From: Escherichia coli
GTDB lineage: Bacteria > Pseudomonadota > Gammaproteobacteria > Enterobacterales > Enterobacteriaceae
Length of the DNA stretch: 62,123 nucleotides
Assembly (NCBI RefSeq): GCF_003334815.1
Contig: NZ_QOWO01000026.1
Strand: one strand, 5' to 3'
Each line of letters begins with the position of its first letter. Positions within the stretch are counted from its first letter, which is position 1. Shown here piece by piece: positions 44,495-55,245 of the stretch. The position numbers and the translations under genes were made by a program. A model generated the notes under the pieces. The model searched no databases. It saw only the letters and a program-made list of their open reading frames with translations, and was not told the DNA's origin.

Positions 44495-46120
44495 ATGAAT
44501 ATTTTCACAGAGGCTGCAAAACTCGAAGAGCAAAATTGTCCGTTTGCTATGGCGCAAATTGTTGATAGCCGAGGCTCGACTCCCCGCCATTCTGCACAAA
44601 TGTTAGTGCGCGCCGATGGTTCTATCGTCGGTACAATTGGTGGCGGAATGGTTGAGCGGAAGGTGATTGAAGAGTCGCTTCAGGCATTGCAGGAACGTAA
44701 GCCGCGATTATTCCATGGACGTATGGCTCGTAACGGTGCGGATGCTGTCGGGTCAGATTGTGGAGGTGCAATGTCAGTATTTATCAGCGCCCATGGTATG
44801 CGTCCACGTCTGGTGTTGATTGGCGCGGGGCATGTCAACCGGGCGATAGCCCAGAGTGCGGCGCTATTAGGATTTGATATTGCCGTTGCTGATATTTATC
44901 GCGAAAGCCTCAATCCTGAACTATTCCCACCATCAACCACGCTTCTCCATGCTGAGTCGTTTGGTGCGGCAGTGGAAGCACTGGATATTCGCCCTGATAA
45001 TTTTGTCCTGATTGCCACGAATAATCAGGATCGTGAAGCCCTCGACAAACTCATTGAACAGCCCATTGCATGGTTGGGGTTGCTGGCAAGTCGTCGCAAG
45101 GTTCAGCTTTTCCTGCGTCAATTGCGTGAGAAAGGCGTGGCTGAAGAACATATTGCCCGTTTACATGCGCCCGTTGGTTACAACATAGGTGCGGAAACGC
45201 CGCAGGAGATCGCCATCAGCGTGCTGGCAGAAATATTACAGGTGAAAAATAACGCGCCGGGTGGGCTGATGATGAAACCTTCTCATCCTTCCGGACACCA
45301 GCTGGTGGTGATTCGCGGTGCGGGAGATATCGCCAGTGGTGTGGCGCTACGTCTGTATCATGCGGGTTTTAAAGTGATCATGCTGGAAGTGGAAAAACCG
45401 ACAGTGATTCGTTGTACCGTGGCGTTTGCCCAGGCCGTGTTCGATGGCGAAATGACGGTCGAAGGCGTCACTGCTCGCCTGGCAACCAGCTCTGCGGAAG
45501 CGATGAAACTTACCGAACGCGGATTCATTCCTGTGATGGTAGATCCCGCCTGTTCATTGCTTGATGAACTGAAACCGCTTTGCGTGGTGGACGCTATTCT
45601 GGCGAAACAGAATTTGGGAACGCGGGCAGATATGGCACCAGTAACAATCGCGCTTGGGCCGGGCTTTACTGCTGGGAAGGATTGTCATGCGGTAATTGAA
45701 ACAAATCGCGGGCACTGGCTCGGTCAGGTGATTTACTCTGGTTGTGCGCAGGAGAATACCGGTGTTCCTGGCAATATTATGGGGCATACCACCCGACGGG
45801 TGATCCGTGCTCCTGCTGCAGGCATTATGCGATCCAACGTGAAATTAGGCGATCTGGTGAAAGAGGGCGATGTGATTGCCTGGATTGGTGAGCATGAAAT
45901 TAAAGCACCGTTGACGGGGATGGTGCGTGGCTTGTTGAACGACGGCCTGGCAGTGGTTGGTGGTTTTAAAATTGGTGATATCGATCCTCGTGGTGAAACC
46001 GCTGATTTCACCAGCGTTTCTGATAAAGCCCGGGCGATTGGCGGCGGCGTACTTGAGGCGTTAATGATGTTGATGCATCAGGGCGTGAAAGCGACAAAAG
46101 AAGTGCTGGAAGTGGCTTAA
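44495..46120 (+). CDS. yqeB: XdhC/CoxI-family molybdenum hydroxylase accessory protein
   Basis: 541-aa ORF; Rossmann-like GAGHVNRAIA and GAGDIASGVA. Confidence 0.92.
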   Translation: MNIFTEAAKLEEQNCPFAMAQIVDSRGSTPRHSAQMLVRADGSIVGTIGGGMVERKVIEESLQALQERKPRLFHGRMARNGADAVGSDCGGAMSVFISAHGMRPRLVLIGAGHVNRAIAQSAALLGFDIAVADIYRESLNPELFPPSTTLLHAESFGAAVEALDIRPDNFVLIATNNQDREALDKLIEQPIAWLGLLASRRKVQLFLRQLREKGVAEEHIARLHAPVGYNIGAETPQEIAISVLAEILQVKNNAPGGLMMKPSHPSGHQLVVIRGAGDIASGVALRLYHAGFKVIMLEVEKPTVIRCTVAFAQAVFDGEMTVEGVTARLATSSAEAMKLTERGFIPVMVDPACSLLDELKPLCVVDAILAKQNLGTRADMAPVTIALGPGFTAGKDCHAVIETNRGHWLGQVIYSGCAQENTGVPGNIMGHTTRRVIRAPAAGIMRSNVKLGDLVKEGDVIAWIGEHEIKAPLTGMVRGLLNDGLAVVGGFKIGDIDPRGETADFTSVSDKARAIGGGVLEALMMLMHQGVKATKEVLEVA

Positions 46121-46127
46121 ATGAAAA

Positions 46128-46334
46128 TGGCCGGATGGTATTACCCACCCGGCCTGAGACTGATGACAAACGCCAAATTGCCTGATGCGCTACGCTTATC
46201 AGGCCTACAAGTGCATTGCAATCTATTGAATTTGCGATGTTTTGTAGGACGGATAAGGCGCTCGCGCCGCATCCGGCATCAACAAAGCGCACTTACTTGA
46301 CAATCTTTGGCCGGATGGTATTACCCACCCGGCC
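46128..46334. repeat. REP/BIME cluster bracketed by a 27-bp direct repeat
   Basis: tggccggatggtattacccacccggcc at 46128-46154 and again at 46308-46334; REP units gcctgatgcgctacgcttatcaggcctac and gtaggacggataaggcgctcgcgccgcatccggca in between. Confidence 0.75.
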
Positions 46335-46340
46335 TTTAAA

Positions 46341-47273
46341 TTACTGACAAATCACCGTTCCTGTTTTGCCTTCAATCCCTTCTTTCGCTTTGCTCAATAC
46401 GGTAATCAGTGCTTCACGACCTGCGCGAGAGCGAGCAAACGAGGCGGCAGCTTCCACTTTAGGCAGCATAGAACCTTTCGCAAAATGACCTTCTTCGATA
46501 AAGCGTTCAGCATCACTTAATGACAGGCGATCGAGCCACTGTTCATTCTCTTTACCGAAGTTAATGGCCACTTTTTCTACCGCAGTCAGAATGATCAGCA
46601 TATCGGCATCAATCATTTCTGCTAAACGGGCGCTGGCCCAGTCTTTATCGATAACCGCGCTGGCACCACGCAGATGGTTACCTTCACGAATAACAGGGAT
46701 ACCACCACCGCCAACGGTGATCACCACCTGACCTGCATCTACCAGAGCTTTAACCGTTTCTTTTTCAATGATATCAACCGGTTTTGGCGAGGCAACAACA
46801 CGGCGATAGCCGCGACCAGCATCTTCTTTCAGAGTGTAACCCTGTTTTGTCAGTTGCTCTGCTTCTTGCTCGGTAAAGAACGAACCGATCGGCTTGGTCG
46901 GGTTGAGGAATGCCGGATCGTTAGCGTCGACTTCGACCTGAGTAACCAGCGTTGCTACAGGTTTATTAATGCCCCGAGAAAGCAGTTCTTCTCTTAAAGC
47001 GTTTTGTAGATCGTAACCAATATAACCCTGGCTTAATGCAACACAGACAGACATCGGCAGCATTGGCGAGTGCGCTTCAGTTTTTGCGGCAGCTTCAAAG
47101 GCCTGGTTAATCATGCCCACCTGCGGCCCGTTACCATGAGTGACGATAACTTCATGTCCCTGGGCAATTAAATCAACAATTGCCTGAGAAGTAATTTTTA
47201 CCGCTTTCATTTGCCCGGCCAGGTCATCGCCCAGCGCATTCCCGCCCAGGGCGAGAACAATTTTCTTACTCAT
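46341..47273 (-). CDS. yqeA: Carbamate kinase-like protein
   Basis: 310-aa ORF MSKKIVLALGGNALG... amino acid kinase family. Confidence 0.93.
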   Translation of the reverse strand: MSKKIVLALGGNALGDDLAGQMKAVKITSQAIVDLIAQGHEVIVTHGNGPQVGMINQAFEAAAKTEAHSPMLPMSVCVALSQGYIGYDLQNALREELLSRGINKPVATLVTQVEVDANDPAFLNPTKPIGSFFTEQEAEQLTKQGYTLKEDAGRGYRRVVASPKPVDIIEKETVKALVDAGQVVITVGGGGIPVIREGNHLRGASAVIDKDWASARLAEMIDADMLIILTAVEKVAINFGKENEQWLDRLSLSDAERFIEEGHFAKGSMLPKVEAAASFARSRAGREALITVLSKAKEGIEGKTGTVICQ

Positions 47274-47320
47274 TTTTCCTCACTCATCATTCTTGATTGT
47301 GTATAGATCCCTGGCAGTGG

Positions 47321-48706
47321 TTAGAGCACGGGAGGGACAAACGGTTTGCGTCGCAGGAAACGACCTCGCCCGGCTTTGCCTGTAAAGGTGCCGTCACAGA
47401 AAATCGTTTCACCACGGGATAAGGTTCTGACAATCGCGCCCTGACAGGTAAAACCCTCCCATGGCGAGTAGTCGGCGTTGTCGTGGAGATGGCGATGCTG
47501 AATTTGTTGGCTCTGACGTGGGTCGATAATCACCACGTCGCCGTCGGAACCGGGCGCTAATAATCCTTTTTGCGGCCACAGGCCAAACAACCTGGCGGGC
47601 ATTGCGCTGGTTAATTCAACAAAGCGTTCCGGTGTTATACGTCCCGTCATCACGCCACTGGAAAACAGTAACTGCATGCGGTTTTCCACACCGGGTAAGC
47701 CATTTGGGCAGCGACTGAAATCGCCTTTAGAAATTTGCAGGCGTTGAGCCATCGAGAAGGTGCAGTGATCGGTTGCCACCACGTCAATCGCACCATCGCT
47801 GATGCCACACCACAGTTTGTCCTGCTCGCGTACGTTACGCAGCGGTGGGCTAAGAATGAACTTCATGCCATCTTCTGTATCGTAACTGCGTTCGTCCAAC
47901 AGGAGATATTGTGGGCAGGTTTCAACCCAGACTGGCTGGTGATTCGCACGGGCAAGACGCAGATAATCCAGACCTAAGCCGTTAGACAGGTGCACGATAT
48001 AGAGCGGGGCGTTACCGGCAATTTGTGCCAGGTTAATCATGCGGGCGATGGCTTCCGCTTCGCATTCCAGAGGGCGACTCAAGGCATGATAGCGCGGCGC
48101 GGTTAACCCTGCGGCGATAAATTCCGCCCGCTTGCTGGCGATAGCCGCATCATTTTCCGGGTGCACGGTGGTCAGCGCGCCGGATTCATGCAAGCGGCGT
48201 AATGCCTGCAAAACCTCGTCATCGTTGAGTTTGTATTGATAGGTTAAATAGAGTTTAAAACTGCTCAGTCCTTCCTCGACCATCATCGGGATTTCGTCGA
48301 GGATTGCGTGATTAATGTGCTGGATCACACCGTGAAAGCTGTAATCGATGACCGCTTTATGGGCGGCATAACCACGATAAACCTCCAGTTGATGGCGTAA
48401 CCGACAGCCGTTTGGGCCAAATCCCATATGGTCAATAATGGTTGTTGTACCGCCACACGCAGCTGCGCGGGTACCGGTAAAAAAATCATCACAACTGCGC
48501 GCGATGCCGACATCAATATTGAAATGCGTATGGACATCCACGCCGCCAGGGAAAACGTAACAGCCAGTGGCATCAATTTCTTCATACGGGAGCTGCGGCG
48601 AAATATTGTTGCCCAACTGGCGAACAATCCCGCTTTCAATCAGCAAATCCTGTTTGGCTTGTCCATCTGCGTTAACGACAGTGCCGTTTTTGATCAATAC
48701 GCGCAT
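47321..48706 (-). CDS. hyuA: D-phenylhydantoinase / dihydropyrimidinase-like cyclic amidohydrolase
   Basis: The start I recall is MRVLIKNGTVVNADG giving 461 aa; HxH metal motif (DVHTHF). Confidence 0.92.
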   Translation of the reverse strand: MRVLIKNGTVVNADGQAKQDLLIESGIVRQLGNNISPQLPYEEIDATGCYVFPGGVDVHTHFNIDVGIARSCDDFFTGTRAAACGGTTTIIDHMGFGPNGCRLRHQLEVYRGYAAHKAVIDYSFHGVIQHINHAILDEIPMMVEEGLSSFKLYLTYQYKLNDDEVLQALRRLHESGALTTVHPENDAAIASKRAEFIAAGLTAPRYHALSRPLECEAEAIARMINLAQIAGNAPLYIVHLSNGLGLDYLRLARANHQPVWVETCPQYLLLDERSYDTEDGMKFILSPPLRNVREQDKLWCGISDGAIDVVATDHCTFSMAQRLQISKGDFSRCPNGLPGVENRMQLLFSSGVMTGRITPERFVELTSAMPARLFGLWPQKGLLAPGSDGDVVIIDPRQSQQIQHRHLHDNADYSPWEGFTCQGAIVRTLSRGETIFCDGTFTGKAGRGRFLRRKPFVPPVL

Positions 48707-48758
48707 AGCAAACTCCAAAAACCCTCCGGCGAACCGGAGGGGAATAAGTGAAGAGTAA

Positions 48759-49970
48759 TTACTCTGTTGCCAGCCAGCTTAACGGGATTGCAGCGTACAT
48801 CGCGGCACAGGTCACCAGGTGAGATTTCCAGGTTTTTTCGTTAGGTGCATGCGCTTCAGGTTCTTTACCCGGGCCAAAGCCGATCACCGGAATGCCGTGA
48901 CGGCCCATGATAGATACGCCGTTAGTTGAGAAGGTCCACTTATCAACAACCGGCGCTTTGCCAAACAGCCCTTCGTAGGCATTCACCAGTGCTTTAACGG
49001 TGAAGTGATCTTCTTCCACTTTCCAGGTCGGGAAGTAGCATTCGGTTGGGTAAACCAGGCCAGTCCAGGACGGACGGTCGTAGTTGTACATAGAAACAAC
49101 CGCGTTAGCTTTCTGTACTGCAGGCAGGGCGCGGATTTCGTCCAGCGCGCCTTCCCAGGTTTCGCCCCAGGTCAGACGACGGTCGATTGAAACTGCGCAG
49201 CTGTCTGCTACAGCGCAACGGCTTGGGGATGTGAAGAAGATTTCAGAAACGGTGAGGGTGCCTTTGCCGAGGAATTCGTCATAACCCAGACGTTGGGAGA
49301 GTTCTTGTAATTCGCCAAGAATCGGACCCATTTTGAAAATGGCGTTATCACCGCGTTCTGGTGCAGAACCGTGGCAGCTAACACCCTGAACATCAATACG
49401 AATTTCCATACGACCGCGCTGACCACGGTATACCTGGCAGTCGGTTGGTTCGGTACTGACCACAAATTCCGGGCGAATGCCGGATTGTTCAATAATGTAC
49501 TGCCAGCACAGACCGTCGCAGTCTTCTTCCTGCACCGTACCGGTAACCAGCAGGGTATATTCATCTTCCAGACCGAGGTCTTTAATGATTTTACCGGCAT
49601 AAACCATAGAGGCCATGCCACCTTCCTGGTCGGAAGTACCGCGACCACCAATCAGTTCATCAGTTTCCATGCCTTCGTACGGATCGAAGTCCCAGTTTTT
49701 GATGTTGCCAATGCCGACGGTATCGATATGAGCGTCCATTGCCACCAGACGCGGGCCGTGGCCGATATAACCGAGAACGTTGCCCATCGGGTCGATTTCA
49801 ACTTTATCGAAGCCGACTTTTTCCATCTCTTCTTTAATACGATGTACTACGCGTTTCTCGTCGCAGCTTTCACTGGGAATAGCAACCATGTCGCGCAGGA
49901 AGCGAGTCATATCCGCCTGGTAATCTTTTGCTTTTTCAAGAATCAGTTTGAATGGAATATTCTTAGCCAT
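48759..49970 (-). CDS. ygeY: M20-family peptidase / amidohydrolase
   Basis: 403-aa [38 protein letters not shown]... (ArgE/DapE-like). Confidence 0.93.
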
Positions 49971-50027
49971 TATTTTTCTCCAGATTTTTTACTCCCCGTT
50001 TTGCAGGGAGCAGTTCCAATAGGGTGA

Positions 50028-51224
50028 TTAAGGTGCTACAGCGTGTTTGCCTTCCCAGACAACTTCGCGGTAGTGCTTCACGTCGGTGTCGCCTTCAGTG
50101 CTGATAACCAGCACCACGGCATCTTTGTTCAGCGCCAGTTTTTCCATCAGGCTTTGACGTTGCGGGTGATAATGAACCGCTGCGAGAACGCCCAAACCGA
50201 CAGCGCCGGATTCACCGGAGATGATGCGCGGGTCGTTGCCGTACGGATTACCCAGCACGCGCATACCTAATGCGGCAACGCTGTCCTGGCAGGAGATGAA
50301 TTGGGTGGCGCAGTTACGTAGGATTTCCCAGCCCAGCGGGTTAGGTTCGCCACAGGCCAGGCCTGCCATGATGGTGGCCATATCACCGCCAACGTTGACG
50401 ATGTCGCCTTTGACGCCGGAGCGATAAATACAGTCAGCTTTGTCAGGTTCAACAATAATGCTGTGCAGATTTTGCGGGCTATAGACGTCGACCAGATAAC
50501 CCAGCACACCACCGGCCATTGCTCCGACACCGGCTTGCAGCAGAACGTGCGTCGGGGTTACGCCCATTTCACGCATTTGCTCGACGGCTTCATCTGCCAG
50601 GGTTGCGTAGCCTTGCATGATCCAGGTTGGGATTTTGGTGTAACCTTCCCATGCCGTGTCCTGTACCACTTCCCAGCCGTGCTGCTGCGCGTGTTGCATG
50701 GTCAGGCGAACGGTATCGTCATAGTTCATATCCGTGACGATGCACTCGGCACCGAGGTTCAGAATGGCGTCAACGCGTTCCTGAGCAGAACCTTTCGGCA
50801 TGTAAATCACCGCATTCTGTCCGAGTTGCTGTGCTGCCCACGCCACACCGCGCCCGTGGTTGCCGTCGGTGGTGGTCGCGAAAGTCATTTTTTCGCCGAT
50901 GGCATTTTTCAGGTGCTCAAATGACAGCGTTTCGATATCAAGATGATATTTTTCACACAATAATTGAGCGATGGCGTACGCACCGCCAAGCATTTTGAAG
51001 GCGTTCAGACCGAATCGTTTTGATTCGTCTTTGACGAGAATTTTCTTCACACCAAAAAGGTTTGCGAGATCGTCCAGCGCACAAAGCGGTGTTGGGCGAT
51101 AACCAGCTATTTTCTGGTGGAACTGGCGCGCCAGTTTGGCCTGGCTTTGCGAAAAGAGCGGTGATGTTTCGCCGTTGAAAAATTTGTTATCGGCGATATC
51201 AATCTTCAATGAGAAAACGGACAT
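50028..51224 (-). CDS. ygeX: Diaminopropionate ammonia-lyase (PLP-dependent)
   Basis: 398-aa ORF; PLP fold-type II. Confidence 0.93.
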   Translation of the reverse strand: MSVFSLKIDIADNKFFNGETSPLFSQSQAKLARQFHQKIAGYRPTPLCALDDLANLFGVKKILVKDESKRFGLNAFKMLGGAYAIAQLLCEKYHLDIETLSFEHLKNAIGEKMTFATTTDGNHGRGVAWAAQQLGQNAVIYMPKGSAQERVDAILNLGAECIVTDMNYDDTVRLTMQHAQQHGWEVVQDTAWEGYTKIPTWIMQGYATLADEAVEQMREMGVTPTHVLLQAGVGAMAGGVLGYLVDVYSPQNLHSIIVEPDKADCIYRSGVKGDIVNVGGDMATIMAGLACGEPNPLGWEILRNCATQFISCQDSVAALGMRVLGNPYGNDPRIISGESGAVGLGVLAAVHYHPQRQSLMEKLALNKDAVVLVISTEGDTDVKHYREVVWEGKHAVAP

Positions 51225-51281
51225 ATCCTATCCTTTTGGCCTCTGGAAATAGAGGGCCGACCAGCTGATCGGCCCGAGGGG

Positions 51282-52472
51282 TTATTTCACGCGTTCTTGC
51301 GCTTCTTTCAGCAGTTGCTCGAGCAGTGCACCTGGTTTGGCGTATTTACGGGACAGGATCATCGCGGCGATGATATAAGGCTTCCAGCTGGCTTCTTTGT
51401 AGGTAGCGATACGGTATTTTTCGAATACGCCTTCAGTCACTTCACCTTCTTTACAGGATACGCCGCTGATATCAGCTGGCAGGCAGTGCATGTACAGGGC
51501 TTCGCCATCACGGGTCAGTTCCATCATCTCTTCAGTACAATGCCAGTCTTTGTGTTGCGCGTTCTGTGCCAGACACTGTTTTTCCAGTGCTTTTAAGCCT
51601 TCGTGATCGTTCGCACGCAGCAATTCAGTACGCTCTTCCATCACTTTGTAAGGTGCCCATGACTTCGGATAAACGATGTCTGCGTCTTTGAAGGCTTCTT
51701 CCATGCTGGTGACCTGACGGAAGCTACCACCGGAGGCTTTAGCATTGTTTTTCGCCACTTCAACCACATCCGGGATCAGGTCGTAGCCTTCCGGATGGGC
51801 CAGGGTGACATCCATACCGAAGCGAGTCATCAGACCGATGATGCCTTGTGGTACAGAGAGCGGTTTGCCATAGCTTGGAGAGTAGGCCCAGGTCATGGCG
51901 ATTTTTTTACCTTTCAGGTTTTCCAGTGAACCAAAGTGTTCACGTAACCACGCGAGGTCAGCCATTGACTGAGTCGGGTGGTCAATATCGCATTGCAGGT
52001 TCACTAAAGCCGGACGCTGTGGCAGTACACCCTGCTTGTAACCGTCATCAAGTGCAGCGCCAACTTCACGCATATAGGCGTTGCCTGCGCCCAGATACAT
52101 ATCGTCGCGAATACCAATAGCGTCGGCGCAGAAGGAGATCATATTGGCGGTTTCACGCACGGTTTCGCCGTGAGCGATTTGTGATTTGCCTTCGTCGAGA
52201 TCTTGTTGTGCAAGGCCGAGCAGGTTAAGCGCGGAAGCATAAGAGAAGCGGGTACGGGTGGAGTTGTCGCGGAATACGGAAATACCTAATCCACTATTAA
52301 AGACTTTGGTTGAGATGTTTTCAGCACGCAGTGCTTTTAATGCTGCGGCAACGTCCAGTACTTGTTTCAGTTCATCTGGCGTCTGTTCCCACGTTAACAA
52401 AAAATCTTTCTCGTGAAGGTGAGAGGTCAGCGAATTGATATCCTTAATCAGCTCATTAACAGTTTTCATCAT
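51282..52472 (-). CDS. ygeW: Ornithine/aspartate carbamoyltransferase-family protein
   Basis: 396-aa ORF; carbamoyl-phosphate binding STRTR motif. Confidence 0.93.
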   Translation of the reverse strand: MMKTVNELIKDINSLTSHLHEKDFLLTWEQTPDELKQVLDVAAALKALRAENISTKVFNSGLGISVFRDNSTRTRFSYASALNLLGLAQQDLDEGKSQIAHGETVRETANMISFCADAIGIRDDMYLGAGNAYMREVGAALDDGYKQGVLPQRPALVNLQCDIDHPTQSMADLAWLREHFGSLENLKGKKIAMTWAYSPSYGKPLSVPQGIIGLMTRFGMDVTLAHPEGYDLIPDVVEVAKNNAKASGGSFRQVTSMEEAFKDADIVYPKSWAPYKVMEERTELLRANDHEGLKALEKQCLAQNAQHKDWHCTEEMMELTRDGEALYMHCLPADISGVSCKEGEVTEGVFEKYRIATYKEASWKPYIIAAMILSRKYAKPGALLEQLLKEAQERVK

Positions 52473-52947
52473 AAAGTCCCGGTAGTGGAATGACAGGCAA
52501 AGTGGTTTATTTCACTGTGACTTGCCAAAGTGATTGGTGTTTTCACAGCTATACCTGGGACTAACAATAAGTGTGCCAGAATTATCCGCGCGGCTGCAAA
52601 AGACTAATTTGACGGATAATGTGTGGGGTTGATCACAAATTGATGCCAGCTTCTGGTTGTTTGTAAAATACGAAAACGTTTGGCTTTTTTTATCGCGTTA
52701 TTTATTTGCTGCTAAGTATCAGAAATAAGATAAAGGGGCAGGCTATCTCTCTTCAGTTTGATAAACTCACCGCCGTAATTCTCATATTGATATAGAAATG
52801 TGATATCTCTTCCATAATTTCATTAGAAAATGATAAAAATCTTATGTTTTTATCAAAGCCAATTTCGCCTGAGTTAATATCATCATGATCTGTGAACCAT
52901 CAACGTCTTCAATGATCGACTTTTAAGTAAGTCTGGAAGGTAAAGCT

Positions 52948-54726
52948 ATGGAGCTTGCTACTACGCAGTCAGTATTGATGCAAATTCAACCGACAATTCA
53001 GCGTTTTGCCAGAATGCTTGCCAGCGTTTTGCAGCTTGAGGTTGAGATCGTTGATGAAAACTTGTGTCGCGTTGCCGGAACGGGCGCGTATGGGAAGTTT
53101 CTTGGTCGCCAGTTGAGCGGCAACTCACGCCTGCTCCGCCACGTCCTGGAAACGAAAACTGAAAAAGTTGTGACACAGTCTCGCTTCGATCCCCTTTGCG
53201 AAGGTTGCGATAGTAAAGAAAATTGCCGCGAAAAAGCATTTCTGGGTACGCCTGTCATTTTACAGGATCGTTGTGTTGGGGTGATAAGTTTGATTGCCGT
53301 TACCCACGAGCAACAAGAGCATATCAGTGATAATTTACGCGAATTTTCTGATTATGTTCGCCATATATCCACCATTTTTGTTTCGAAACTTCTGGAGGAT
53401 CAGGGGCCAGGAGATAACATCAGTAAAATATTTGCGACCATGATCGATAATATGGATCAGGGCGTATTAGTTGTAGATGATGAAAATCGGGTTCAGTTTG
53501 TTAATCAGACTGCCTTAAAAACACTTGGTGTTGTGCAAAATAATATTATTGGGAAACCTATCCGTTTCAGACCATTAACATTTGAGAGTAATTTTACCCA
53601 TGGACATATGCAGCATATTGTTTCATGGGACGATAAAAGTGAATTAATCATTGGTCAATTGCATAACATTCAGGGCCGACAATTATTTTTAATGGCGTTT
53701 CACCAATCGCATACCAGTTTTTCTGTAGCAAATGCACCTGATGAACCGCATATTGAACAATTGGTTGGCGAGTGCCGTGTTATGCGGCAATTAAAACGAC
53801 TCATTAGCCGTATTGCACCCAGCCCATCCAGCGTTATGGTGGTTGGTGAAAGCGGCACGGGTAAAGAAGTCGTCGCCCGTGCAATCCATAAGTTGAGCGG
53901 AAGACGGAATAAACCCTTTATTGCTATCAACTGTGCCGCGATTCCGGAGCAGCTTCTGGAGAGCGAACTGTTCGGTTATGTTAAAGGTGCATTTACTGGC
54001 GCTTCTGCCAACGGTAAAACAGGGTTGATTCAGGCGGCGAATACGGGCACGCTGTTTCTCGATGAAATAGGTGATATGCCATTAATGTTGCAGGCTAAAT
54101 TACTGCGCGCTATTGAGGCACGTGAAATTCTGCCGATTGGTGCCAGTAGCCCAATACAAGTCGACATTCGCATCATTTCTGCAACTAATCAGAATTTGGC
54201 CCAGTTCATTGCCGAAGGTAAATTCCGCGAAGATCTCTTCTACCGACTTAATGTTATCCCGATAACTCTGCCACCGCTGCGTGAACGTCAGGAAGATATT
54301 GAACTATTGGTGCATTACTTTTTACATCTGCATACCCGTCGTCTGGGATCGGTTTATCCTGGCATTGCTCCCGATGTCGTCGAAATATTGCGTAAGCATC
54401 GTTGGCCCGGAAACCTGCGCGAGTTAAGCAATTTGATGGAATATCTGGTTAACGTGGTTCCTTCAGGTGAAGTTATCGACAGCACGCTATTGCCGCCAAA
54501 TCTGCTGAATAATGGCACAACGGAGCAAAGTGATGTAACAGAGGTCAGTGAGGCGCACCTGTCACTCGATGATGCGGGCGGCACGGCGCTGGAGGAGATG
54601 GAAAAGCAAATGATCCGCGAGGCGCTTTCACGTCATAACAGCAAGAAGCAAGTTGCTGATGAACTGGGCATCGGCATTGCTACGCTCTATCGCAAGATTA
54701 AGAAATATGAGTTGTTAAACACATAA
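52948..54726 (+). CDS. ygeV: Sigma-54-dependent transcriptional regulator
   Basis: 592-aa ORF; N-terminal sensor region, AAA+ sigma-54 interaction domain (GESGTGKE, GAFTGA, ESELFGY), C-terminal helix-turn-helix. Confidence 0.93.
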   Translation: MELATTQSVLMQIQPTIQRFARMLASVLQLEVEIVDENLCRVAGTGAYGKFLGRQLSGNSRLLRHVLETKTEKVVTQSRFDPLCEGCDSKENCREKAFLGTPVILQDRCVGVISLIAVTHEQQEHISDNLREFSDYVRHISTIFVSKLLEDQGPGDNISKIFATMIDNMDQGVLVVDDENRVQFVNQTALKTLGVVQNNIIGKPIRFRPLTFESNFTHGHMQHIVSWDDKSELIIGQLHNIQGRQLFLMAFHQSHTSFSVANAPDEPHIEQLVGECRVMRQLKRLISRIAPSPSSVMVVGESGTGKEVVARAIHKLSGRRNKPFIAINCAAIPEQLLESELFGYVKGAFTGASANGKTGLIQAANTGTLFLDEIGDMPLMLQAKLLRAIEAREILPIGASSPIQVDIRIISATNQNLAQFIAEGKFREDLFYRLNVIPITLPPLRERQEDIELLVHYFLHLHTRRLGSVYPGIAPDVVEILRKHRWPGNLRELSNLMEYLVNVVPSGEVIDSTLLPPNLLNNGTTEQSDVTEVSEAHLSLDDAGGTALEEMEKQMIREALSRHNSKKQVADELGIGIATLYRKIKKYELLNT

Positions 54727-54735
54727 CCTCAGTGA

Positions 54736-54766
54736 ATCCGGCCTGAATTCAGGCCGGATATCCTTT
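54736..54766. terminator. Perfect palindromic hairpin between convergent ygeV and xdhC
   Basis: atccggcctg-aatt-caggccggat (10-bp perfect stem) followed by atcctttta. Confidence 0.6.
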
Positions 54767-55245
54767 TACTTCGTTTTCTCGCAATCCAGAACTGTATTTA
54801 CAATCATCTGATACCCCGTGCAGCGACAAAGATTTCCCGCCAGTCCGCGACGAATTTCCGTAATGGTTAATGGCTTCTCGCGTGGTTTCGCCAGCATTGC
54901 CGTGGTAGCCATAATCAGGCCAGGCGTACAAAACCCGCACTGCACTGCGCCGGATTTCGCATAAGCCTGCTGAACATGAGAAAGTTTTCCGCCTTTCGCT
55001 TCACCTTCCAGCGTGCGGATCTCTTTTCCTTCAGCCCAGGCGGCAAGGTATAAGCAACTGTCTATTGCTGTGCCGTCGACCAACACCGTACAGGCACCAC
55101 ATTCACCCACGCAGCACCCTTGTTTGACACTTAGCAGTCCTTGTTCGCGGAGTAATTCCGAGAGCGGCGTGCCTGGTGCGGCGTGAAGCTGAAAAGGCAT
55201 CCCGTTAATGGTGCATTCGATGGTAATTGTTTCGCTGTGATTCAT
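54766..55245 (-). CDS. xdhC: Xanthine dehydrogenase Fe-S subunit ([2Fe-2S])
   Basis: 159-aa ORF with plant-type and second [2Fe-2S] Cys motifs ([11 protein letters not shown]; CGFCTPG). Confidence 0.93.

Follow-up and report, generated by a model that had tools for sequence, protein, structure and literature searches.

The 62,123-nucleotide stretch of Escherichia coli DNA analyzed here (contig NZ_QOWO01000026.1; hereafter the window) carries, at positions 46341-52472 on the minus strand, five intact co-directional open reading frames (ORFs), ygeW, ygeX, ygeY, hyuA, and yqeA. With high confidence, these genes are assigned to the anaerobic reductive uric acid (2,8-dioxopurine) pathway, whose lower branch they make up, under a control that would involve sigma-54, the activator YgeV, the cyclic AMP receptor protein (CRP), and intercistronic hairpins. 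The function of the pathway is already known from two reconstitutions with K-12 proteins published in 2025, and no new enzyme or chemistry is described here. The additions of this analysis are all minor and consist of a conserved putative sigma-54 promoter, shared palindromes, and conserved hairpins after ygeW and ygeY.

The boundaries of the five ORFs agree exactly with those of a first-pass annotation made from the sequence alone, and its description of five co-directional genes, with their names and families, is correct throughout by both coordinates and NCBIfam scores; the strand was not given in that annotation. None of the ORFs contains an internal stop and all five products exceed the curated cut-offs of the NCBIfam models on which the family calls are based. 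The first gene, ygeW (51282-52472), encodes a knotted catabolic carbamoyltransferase scoring 825 bits against NF005538 (cut-off 453) and 675 bits against TIGR03316 (cut-off 500), with the carbamoyl-phosphate motifs STRTR (S-x-R-T-R) at residue 71 and HPTQ (H-P-x-Q) at residue 165, and the motif HCLP (H-x-L-P) at residue 329. The protein is the same in sequence as that of K-12 and matches the solved structure of E. coli YgeW (PDB code 3Q98) with 898 bits. The product of ygeX (dpaL; 50028-51224) is a pyridoxal phosphate (PLP)-dependent 2,3-diaminopropionate ammonia-lyase (TIGR03528, 651 bits, cut-off 532), also the same as in K-12, with the PLP-lysine context FKMLGG at residue 77 and a match of 912 bits over residues 1-398 to PDB code 4D9G, which with related entries gives the solved structure of the E. 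coli enzyme. YgeY (48759-49970), again the same as in K-12, is an M20 amidohydrolase of the ArgE/DapE type (TIGR03526, 722 bits, cut-off 321.5), for which no solved structure was found at E<1e-20. HyuA (47321-48706) is a cyclic amidohydrolase of the D-hydantoinase/dihydropyrimidinase type (TIGR02033, 675 bits, cut-off 393), with the metal motif D-x-H-x-H present as DVHTH at residue 57 and a D-hydantoinase (PDB code 1YNY, 370 bits) as the nearest solved structure. The last gene, yqeA (arcC; 46341-47273), encodes a carbamate kinase identical to that of K-12 (TIGR00746, 385.6 bits, cut-off 358.25), the nearest solved structure being Enterococcus faecalis carbamate kinase (PDB code 1B7B, 305 bits). 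Two start codons differ between sources: RefSeq, through the Prokaryotic Genome Annotation Pipeline (PGAP), begins ygeW at the second Met (52469) and the K-12 annotation at the first, and the mechanical ORF list extends hyuA to a TTG at 48718, with the annotated ATG at 48706.

Over 6,827 bp, the module and its flanking non-coding DNA differ from K-12 MG1655 (b2870-b2874) at a single nucleotide. Consequently, four of the proteins are identical to those of K-12 and the fifth, HyuA, carries I142M; the non-coding DNA is identical and nothing functional distinguishes the two loci. The window is chromosomal E. coli DNA. Of 5,426 complete E. coli genomes, 5,179 carry the region 46341-52472 at 95-100% identity and 247 lack the module; among the 5,183 matching places, a single one is on a plasmid instead of the chromosome.

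In this pathway, XdhD-YgfM reduces urate to 2,8-dioxopurine, which YgfK and SsnA then dearomatize and open at the six-membered ring to yield 5-ureidomethyl-hydantoin. The module acts from this point onward, with HyuA hydrolyzing the hydantoin ring to give 2,3-diureidopropionate and YgeW cleaving one of the two ureido groups in a phosphate-dependent manner to release carbamoyl phosphate. From carbamoyl phosphate and ADP, YqeA forms ATP (one per urate), NH3, and CO2. The second ureido group is hydrolyzed by YgeY to leave 2,3-diaminopropionate (DAP), and YgeX converts DAP to pyruvate and two NH3, the pyruvate then entering central metabolism and largely being excreted as acetate.

The steps of this scheme have been reconstituted with K-12 proteins by Liu et al. 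(bioRxiv 2025.04.24.650524) and Li et al. (Life Metab 2025, PMC12507026). Liu et al. showed that YgeW and YqeA, given 2,3-diureidopropionate together with ADP and Mg, form ATP and convert the substrate, that ygeX mutants build up DAP, and that recombinant YgeX turns it into pyruvate. Li et al. followed urate to 2,8-dioxopurine with XdhD-YgfM and on to ureidomethyl-hydantoin with YgfK and SsnA, after which HyuA opened the hydantoin, YgeW with phosphate (or the Clostridioides difficile hydrolase UacY) gave a mono-ureido acid, and YgeY and YgeX produced pyruvate. Earlier genetics had revealed that urate-to-acetate conversion is lost in E. coli ygeW, ygeX, ygeY, and hyuA mutants, the syntenic ygeW-yqeA block was already noted in 2013 as a module of purine catabolism, and the pathway is already cited by reviews from 2026. 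The first-pass annotation had proposed the opening of a hydantoin or ureido ring, release of a carbamoyl unit, and ATP formation from carbamoyl phosphate, and these steps are borne out by the two 2025 studies; its placement of the genes in the lower branch of purine/urate catabolism is likewise upheld by the reconstitutions and by the mutants. Its caveat that the native substrates could be named from family membership only has been overtaken by the same enzyme studies, which used the pathway intermediates.

RefSeq product names in the region 39576-58428 trail this biochemistry. YgfK is still a "putative selenate reductase subunit YgfK" and SsnA a "putative aminohydrolase SsnA"; other outdated names are "putative peptidase YgeY," "YgeY family selenium metabolism-linked hydrolase," "D-phenylhydantoinase," and, in K-12, "putative amino acid kinase YqeA." A role of YgeY in selenium chemistry, as its label would imply, was considered and rejected, since YgeY owes the label to occurring together with the pathway's selenium-dependent molybdenum hydroxylase.

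To the left of the module in the window are yqeB, yqeC, and mocA (selenium/molybdenum cofactor genes), ygfK, ssnA, ygfM, and xdhD, as well as xanQ, guaD, ghxQ, ygfS, ygfT, and uacT; to its right are the divergent sigma-54 activator gene ygeV and then xdhABC. The upper-branch genes xdhD-ygfM, ygfK, and ssnA, together with a urate transporter, are annotated 4-20 kb left of the module, which thus occupies the center of the purine/urate island of E. coli.

To compare this arrangement across species, the E. coli cluster proteins were mapped onto 80 loci with YgeW orthologues of 68-96% identity, taken from one genome per species. The order ygeW-ygeX-ygeY-hyuA-yqeA, usually with a divergent ygeV, was found in about 30 gammaproteobacterial loci, which belong to Enterobacterales (e.g. 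Citrobacter, Klebsiella, Edwardsiella, Hafnia, Morganella, and Serratia), Aeromonas, and Photobacterium. The Photobacterium loci (L029-L034 and L041) carry in the fifth position, about 5.7 kb downstream of ygeW, a kinase with 39-40% identity to YqeA, the other four proteins being 64-84% identical to those of E. coli. This looks like a non-orthologous replacement within a conserved operon, and a distant kinase paralogue occupying the same slot argues for selection on the coupling of YgeW with a kinase. In Bacteroidota, Riflebacteria, Verrucomicrobiota, and others, only the ygeW-ygeY pair is kept, with ssnA and xdh homologues nearby. In a Comamonadaceae metagenome-assembled genome (L075, 3999-14800), two ygeW copies (86% and 83% identity to the E. 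coli protein) flank ygeV and ygeY homologues.

The gene ygeV (uacR/isrR; 52948-54726, plus strand) is annotated as a sigma-54-dependent activator and is probably the regulator of the module. Its divergent position is kept in most of the syntenic loci, a published YgeV iModulon points to the same role, and Iwadate and Kato 2019, as cited by later papers, found YgeV to be required for the degradation of urate. A predicted sigma-54-type -24/-12 promoter of ygeW (TGGCAC-N5-TTGTT, one mismatch) lies at 52563-52578 on the minus strand and is the sole one-mismatch sigma-54 match in the intergenic DNA near the module. In 21 of 30 syntenic loci, the element precedes the ATG by 81-122 nt; none of its columns varies in an alignment of 13 genera, and a peak of the RpoN holoenzyme in genomic systematic evolution of ligands by exponential enrichment (in vitro binding) falls within the ygeV/ygeW spacer. 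Across the whole window, sigma-54 patterns numbered 43, with 43.1 expected from shuffles, and so are not enriched; the promoter call is therefore based on where the element lies, on its conservation across genera, and on the RpoN binding in the literature, and not on the pattern match. The predicted transcription start of ygeW, near 52552, would leave a leader of ~80 nt.

Two further elements of the spacer suggest how this promoter, some 80 nt upstream of ygeW, would be controlled, with activation by YgeV/UacR at TGATA/TATCA palindromes and modulation by CRP. A CRP-like site, TGTGATCAACCCCACA (TGTGA-N6-CCACA; 52622-52637, minus strand), is centered at about -77 from the predicted start, and its block GTGA-N6-C.CA is conserved in the 13-genus alignment. 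A native Crp site in the ygeV/ygeW spacer and glucose repression of the pathway were reported by Li et al. (PMC12507026); by our own assignment, TGTGATCAACCCCACA would be that site. Further upstream, a cluster of TGATA/TATCA half-sites (52754-52855), which includes TGATAAAAA-N7-TTTTTATCA and TATCA-N3-TGAGA, forms a candidate upstream activating sequence. With six half-sites per 150 bp, where 0.4 would be expected, it is the densest spot of the 62-kb window, and its core columns are invariant across the 13 genera. Comparable pairs of elements are found at two other operons of the window: upstream of ygfK, the palindrome TTATCATAATGATAA (42931-42945) accompanies a sigma-54-like TGGTGC-N5-TTGCT (42747-42762), and upstream of xdhA, the palindrome TGATACGTATCA (58591-58602) accompanies TGGCGT-N5-TTGCC (58484-58499). 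The ygfK and xdhA operons both belong to the YgeV iModulon. Palindromes of the TTATCA-N3-TGATAA type upstream of ygeW, ygfK, and xdhA are accordingly proposed, on the strength of their sequence and placement, as a candidate YgeV/UacR enhancer. That such a shared enhancer at three sigma-54 promoters defines the urate regulon and, together with hairpins of conserved structure and variable sequence that, through mRNA stability or attenuation, would set enzyme ratios and in part uncouple hyuA-yqeA from ygeWXY, makes up an undescribed regulatory layer is a tentative idea, with the balance of probability somewhat against it.

A riboswitch-like element in the ~80-nt ygeW leader was considered and rejected, as RNAalifold on 16 genera returned only a 4-bp invariant closing stem, with no covariation and -1 kcal/mol. 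An Rfam scan of 45900-53100 gave no match besides those derived from repetitive extragenic palindromic (REP) elements. Within the leader, a 22-nt stretch before the Shine-Dalgarno sequence (GCCTGTCATTCCACTACCGGGA, 52477-52498) is strongly conserved across 13 genera; no conserved secondary structure was detectable in it, and it could be a candidate binding site for a small RNA or a protein.

The genes of the module are separated by 57, 57, 52, and 47 nt, in module order, and no sigma-70-like site was matched in any of the four gaps. In many genera, there is either a 4-nt overlap or a 12-nt gap between hyuA and yqeA. Directly after the ygeW stop codon, a GC-rich hairpin (51254-51275, minus strand) has a 9-bp stem with seven GC pairs. 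Nearly every syntenic locus has a comparable hairpin at this point, with other stem sequences and a median z of -2.2 against dinucleotide shuffles, and RNAalifold identified five pairs, four of them with compensatory changes. A second hairpin, CCCTCCGG-TTCG-CCGGAGGG followed by TTTTT (48717-48741, minus strand), occupies the ygeY-hyuA gap, resembles a terminator or attenuator, and adjoins the Shine-Dalgarno sequence of hyuA (GGAG, 48713-48716). It is found in nearly all syntenic loci with differing stem sequences (median z of -2.9, 78% of loci below -2). The divergent stems could not be brought into register by MAFFT and RNAalifold returned 0 pairs, so that conservation of structure, and not formal covariation, is claimed for this hairpin. 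A weaker hairpin in the ygeX-ygeY gap (49992-50010, minus strand; z of -2.8 in E. coli) is not conserved, with a median z of -1.0 in other genera and absence in several, and the hyuA-yqeA gaps have a median z of -0.2. The conserved hairpins after ygeW and ygeY may tune the relative levels of the cistrons. Because the T-tract after the ygeY hairpin is kept in few genera only, a general role in stabilization or processing of the transcript is more likely than termination; from its sequence, the E. coli ygeY hairpin may also attenuate.

Several observations weigh against the assignment of the module to the urate pathway under this control. With regard to the enzymes, the YgeW product peak was only small in the work of Li et al. 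(PMC12507026), whose figure of HyuA assays used the C. difficile enzyme, and the hydantoin intermediate was termed provisional by Liu et al. (bioRxiv 2025.04.24.650524); moreover, the two studies differ in the regiochemistry of the YgeW step. At the ygeW promoter, the -24 GG is present but the -12 dinucleotide is GT, where the consensus has GG and GC at a spacing of 10 nt. Finally, a hairpin with U5 stands between ygeY and hyuA, and the genes listed for the YgeV iModulon in the literature include hyuA but not yqeA. A single five-gene transcript is therefore just one possibility, and published descriptions of the operon vary, one source giving it as ygeWXY and another (PMC12623156) as ygeWXY-hyuA-yqeA. 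Co-transcription of all five genes, which the first-pass annotation had singled out for checking, is favored by the short gaps, the lack of a matched internal sigma-70-like site, and the single predicted sigma-54 promoter, and is called into question by the terminator-like ygeY-hyuA hairpin.

The disagreement over regiochemistry concerns which of the two ureido groups is removed by YgeW. A commentary of November 2025 noted that the two proposals diverge at the YgeW/YgeY step, and a literature search for a later primary paper that settles the matter found none. The two orders are taken to be equally likely, each standing just short of an even chance. In the order proposed by Liu et al. (bioRxiv 2025.04.24.650524), YgeW phosphorolyzes the distal 3-ureido group, which leaves 3-amino-2-ureidopropionate for YgeY to strip of its N-alpha carbamoyl (2-ureido) group, an assignment based on comparison with synthesized standards by mass spectrometry. 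These standards came from a non-regiospecific carbamoylation of DAP with urea, which counts against the assignment. In the arginine pathway, N-acetyl- and N-succinyl-ornithine transcarbamylases target the distal amine of amino acids acylated at N-alpha. YgeW groups with these transcarbamylases, as cited in the literature, and YgeY is ArgE/DapE-like, i.e. from an N-alpha deacylase family; family analogy would thus mildly favor removal of the distal group first.

In the opposite order, put forward by Li et al. (PMC12507026), YgeW phosphorolyzes the 2-ureido (N-alpha) group to yield albizziin, from which YgeY then removes the 3-ureido group. Here, the product of both YgeW and UacY co-elutes with commercial albizziin, and albizziin incubated with YgeY and YgeX gives pyruvate. 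Furthermore, the C. difficile enzyme that stands in for YgeW and YqeA is a homologue of D-aminoacylase, from a family of N-alpha-acyl hydrolases. Against this order, Liu et al. (bioRxiv 2025.04.24.650524) assign the opposite isomer, the YgeW peak is the small one already mentioned, close positional isomers can mislead by co-elution in liquid chromatography, and the use of albizziin by YgeY in vitro is no proof of an intermediate in vivo.

Readings that take the module out of the urate pathway fare far worse. It is very improbable that the genes form a general hydantoin-utilization cassette, unrelated to purines, in which HyuA as D-phenylhydantoinase and YgeY as N-carbamoyl-amino-acid amidohydrolase would convert 5-substituted hydantoins to D-amino acids. 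HyuA is still annotated as a D-phenylhydantoinase, its nearest kin are industrial D-hydantoinases, and a D-stereospecific phenylhydantoinase activity of the enzyme is known, as noted by Li et al. (PMC12507026). However, such a cassette leaves the carbamoyltransferase, the carbamate kinase, and the DAP lyase unexplained, the module lies among purine/urate genes and shares their regulation, its mutants are blocked in urate-to-acetate conversion, and the native hydantoin substrate has been identified (Liu et al., Li et al.). Even less credence is given to YgeW being an oxamate transcarbamylase in an oxalurate/oxamate branch of allantoin fermentation, or to a catabolism of oxidized guanine that releases guanidine: proteins of the YgeW type were long orphan catabolic transcarbamylases beside a carbamate kinase and the guanidine idea was the speculation of a 2025 review (PMC12623156), but that review itself gives the E. 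coli oxamate carbamoyltransferase to allFGH/K, isotope tracing and reconstitution run from urate through DAP to pyruvate, neither oxalurate nor guanidine being reported as an intermediate, and the synteny in many genera contradicts the review's claim of an E. coli-specific island.

As the lower branch of urate degradation, the module can be compared with three known systems. Like the arginine deiminase pathway, with its ornithine carbamoyltransferase (OTC) and ArcC, it joins a phosphorolytic catabolic transcarbamylase to a carbamate kinase for substrate-level formation of ATP, an analogy also drawn by Liu et al. (bioRxiv 2025.04.24.650524). The arginine deiminase pathway uses citrulline, whereas the module uses a purine-derived diureido acid, and YgeW differs from OTC in being knotted, lacking the DxxxSMG motif of OTC, and scoring 133 bits where the OTC cut-off is 281. 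With reductive pyrimidine degradation (dihydropyrimidine dehydrogenase PydA, dihydropyrimidinase PydB, and beta-ureidopropionase PydC) the pathway shares the sequence of reduction, ring opening by a cyclic amidohydrolase, and removal of a ureido group. HyuA fits the dihydropyrimidinase equivalog model, and Li et al. (PMC12507026) relate SsnA to PydB and YgfK/UacX to PydA. Unlike the pyrimidine route, the urate pathway handles two rings and two ureido groups, one of which is kept as carbamoyl phosphate instead of being hydrolyzed, and ends in pyruvate via DAP, not in beta-alanine. The C. difficile cluster (UacX, HyuA, and UacY) proceeds through the same intermediates and has the HyuA, YgeY, and YgeX steps in common with E. 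coli, but the hydrolytic D-aminoacylase homologue UacY takes the place of YgeW and YqeA; C. difficile consequently gains no ATP at that step.

The pathway is medically relevant in that gut bacteria possessing it clear the urate that reaches the intestine by excretion. Credit for this significance goes to the published work, in which E. coli Nissle overexpressing the cluster lowered serum urate in uricase-deficient mice. What remains of value here is the question of YgeW/YgeY regiochemistry and the small regulatory observations. The native control region, with its conserved putative sigma-54 promoter and candidate activator sites, is currently replaced in engineering efforts, and the internal hairpins could limit expression of hyuA and yqeA in strains engineered with a promoter upstream of ygeW.

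At the other end of the module, the convergent 3' region of yqeA and yqeB (46128-46335) contains the 28-nt hairpin AGGCCGGGTGGGTAATACCATCCGGCCA twice, flanking a REP/bacterial interspersed mosaic element. The direct-repeat copies lie at 46308-46335 and 46128-46155, and the distal one, which is followed by a T-tract, is probably the terminator of yqeA. The REP-derived Rfam family ES036 scores 36.3 bits at 46201-46243, slightly below its gathering score. The AGGCCGGGTGGGTAATACCATCCGGCCA pair resembles a bidirectional terminator that was duplicated around an inserted REP element.

Toward the right end of the window, the sequence no longer matches strain L73 immediately after tRNA-Gly(CCC) (59677-59750). 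The segment 59677-62123 carries a 548-aa tyrosine recombinase/integrase (59865-61511) and a 120-aa ORF (61561-61923), and resembles the margin of a rare island that has inserted at the tRNA gene. Only two of 5,426 complete E. coli genomes cover at least 80% of the segment, at ~94% identity.

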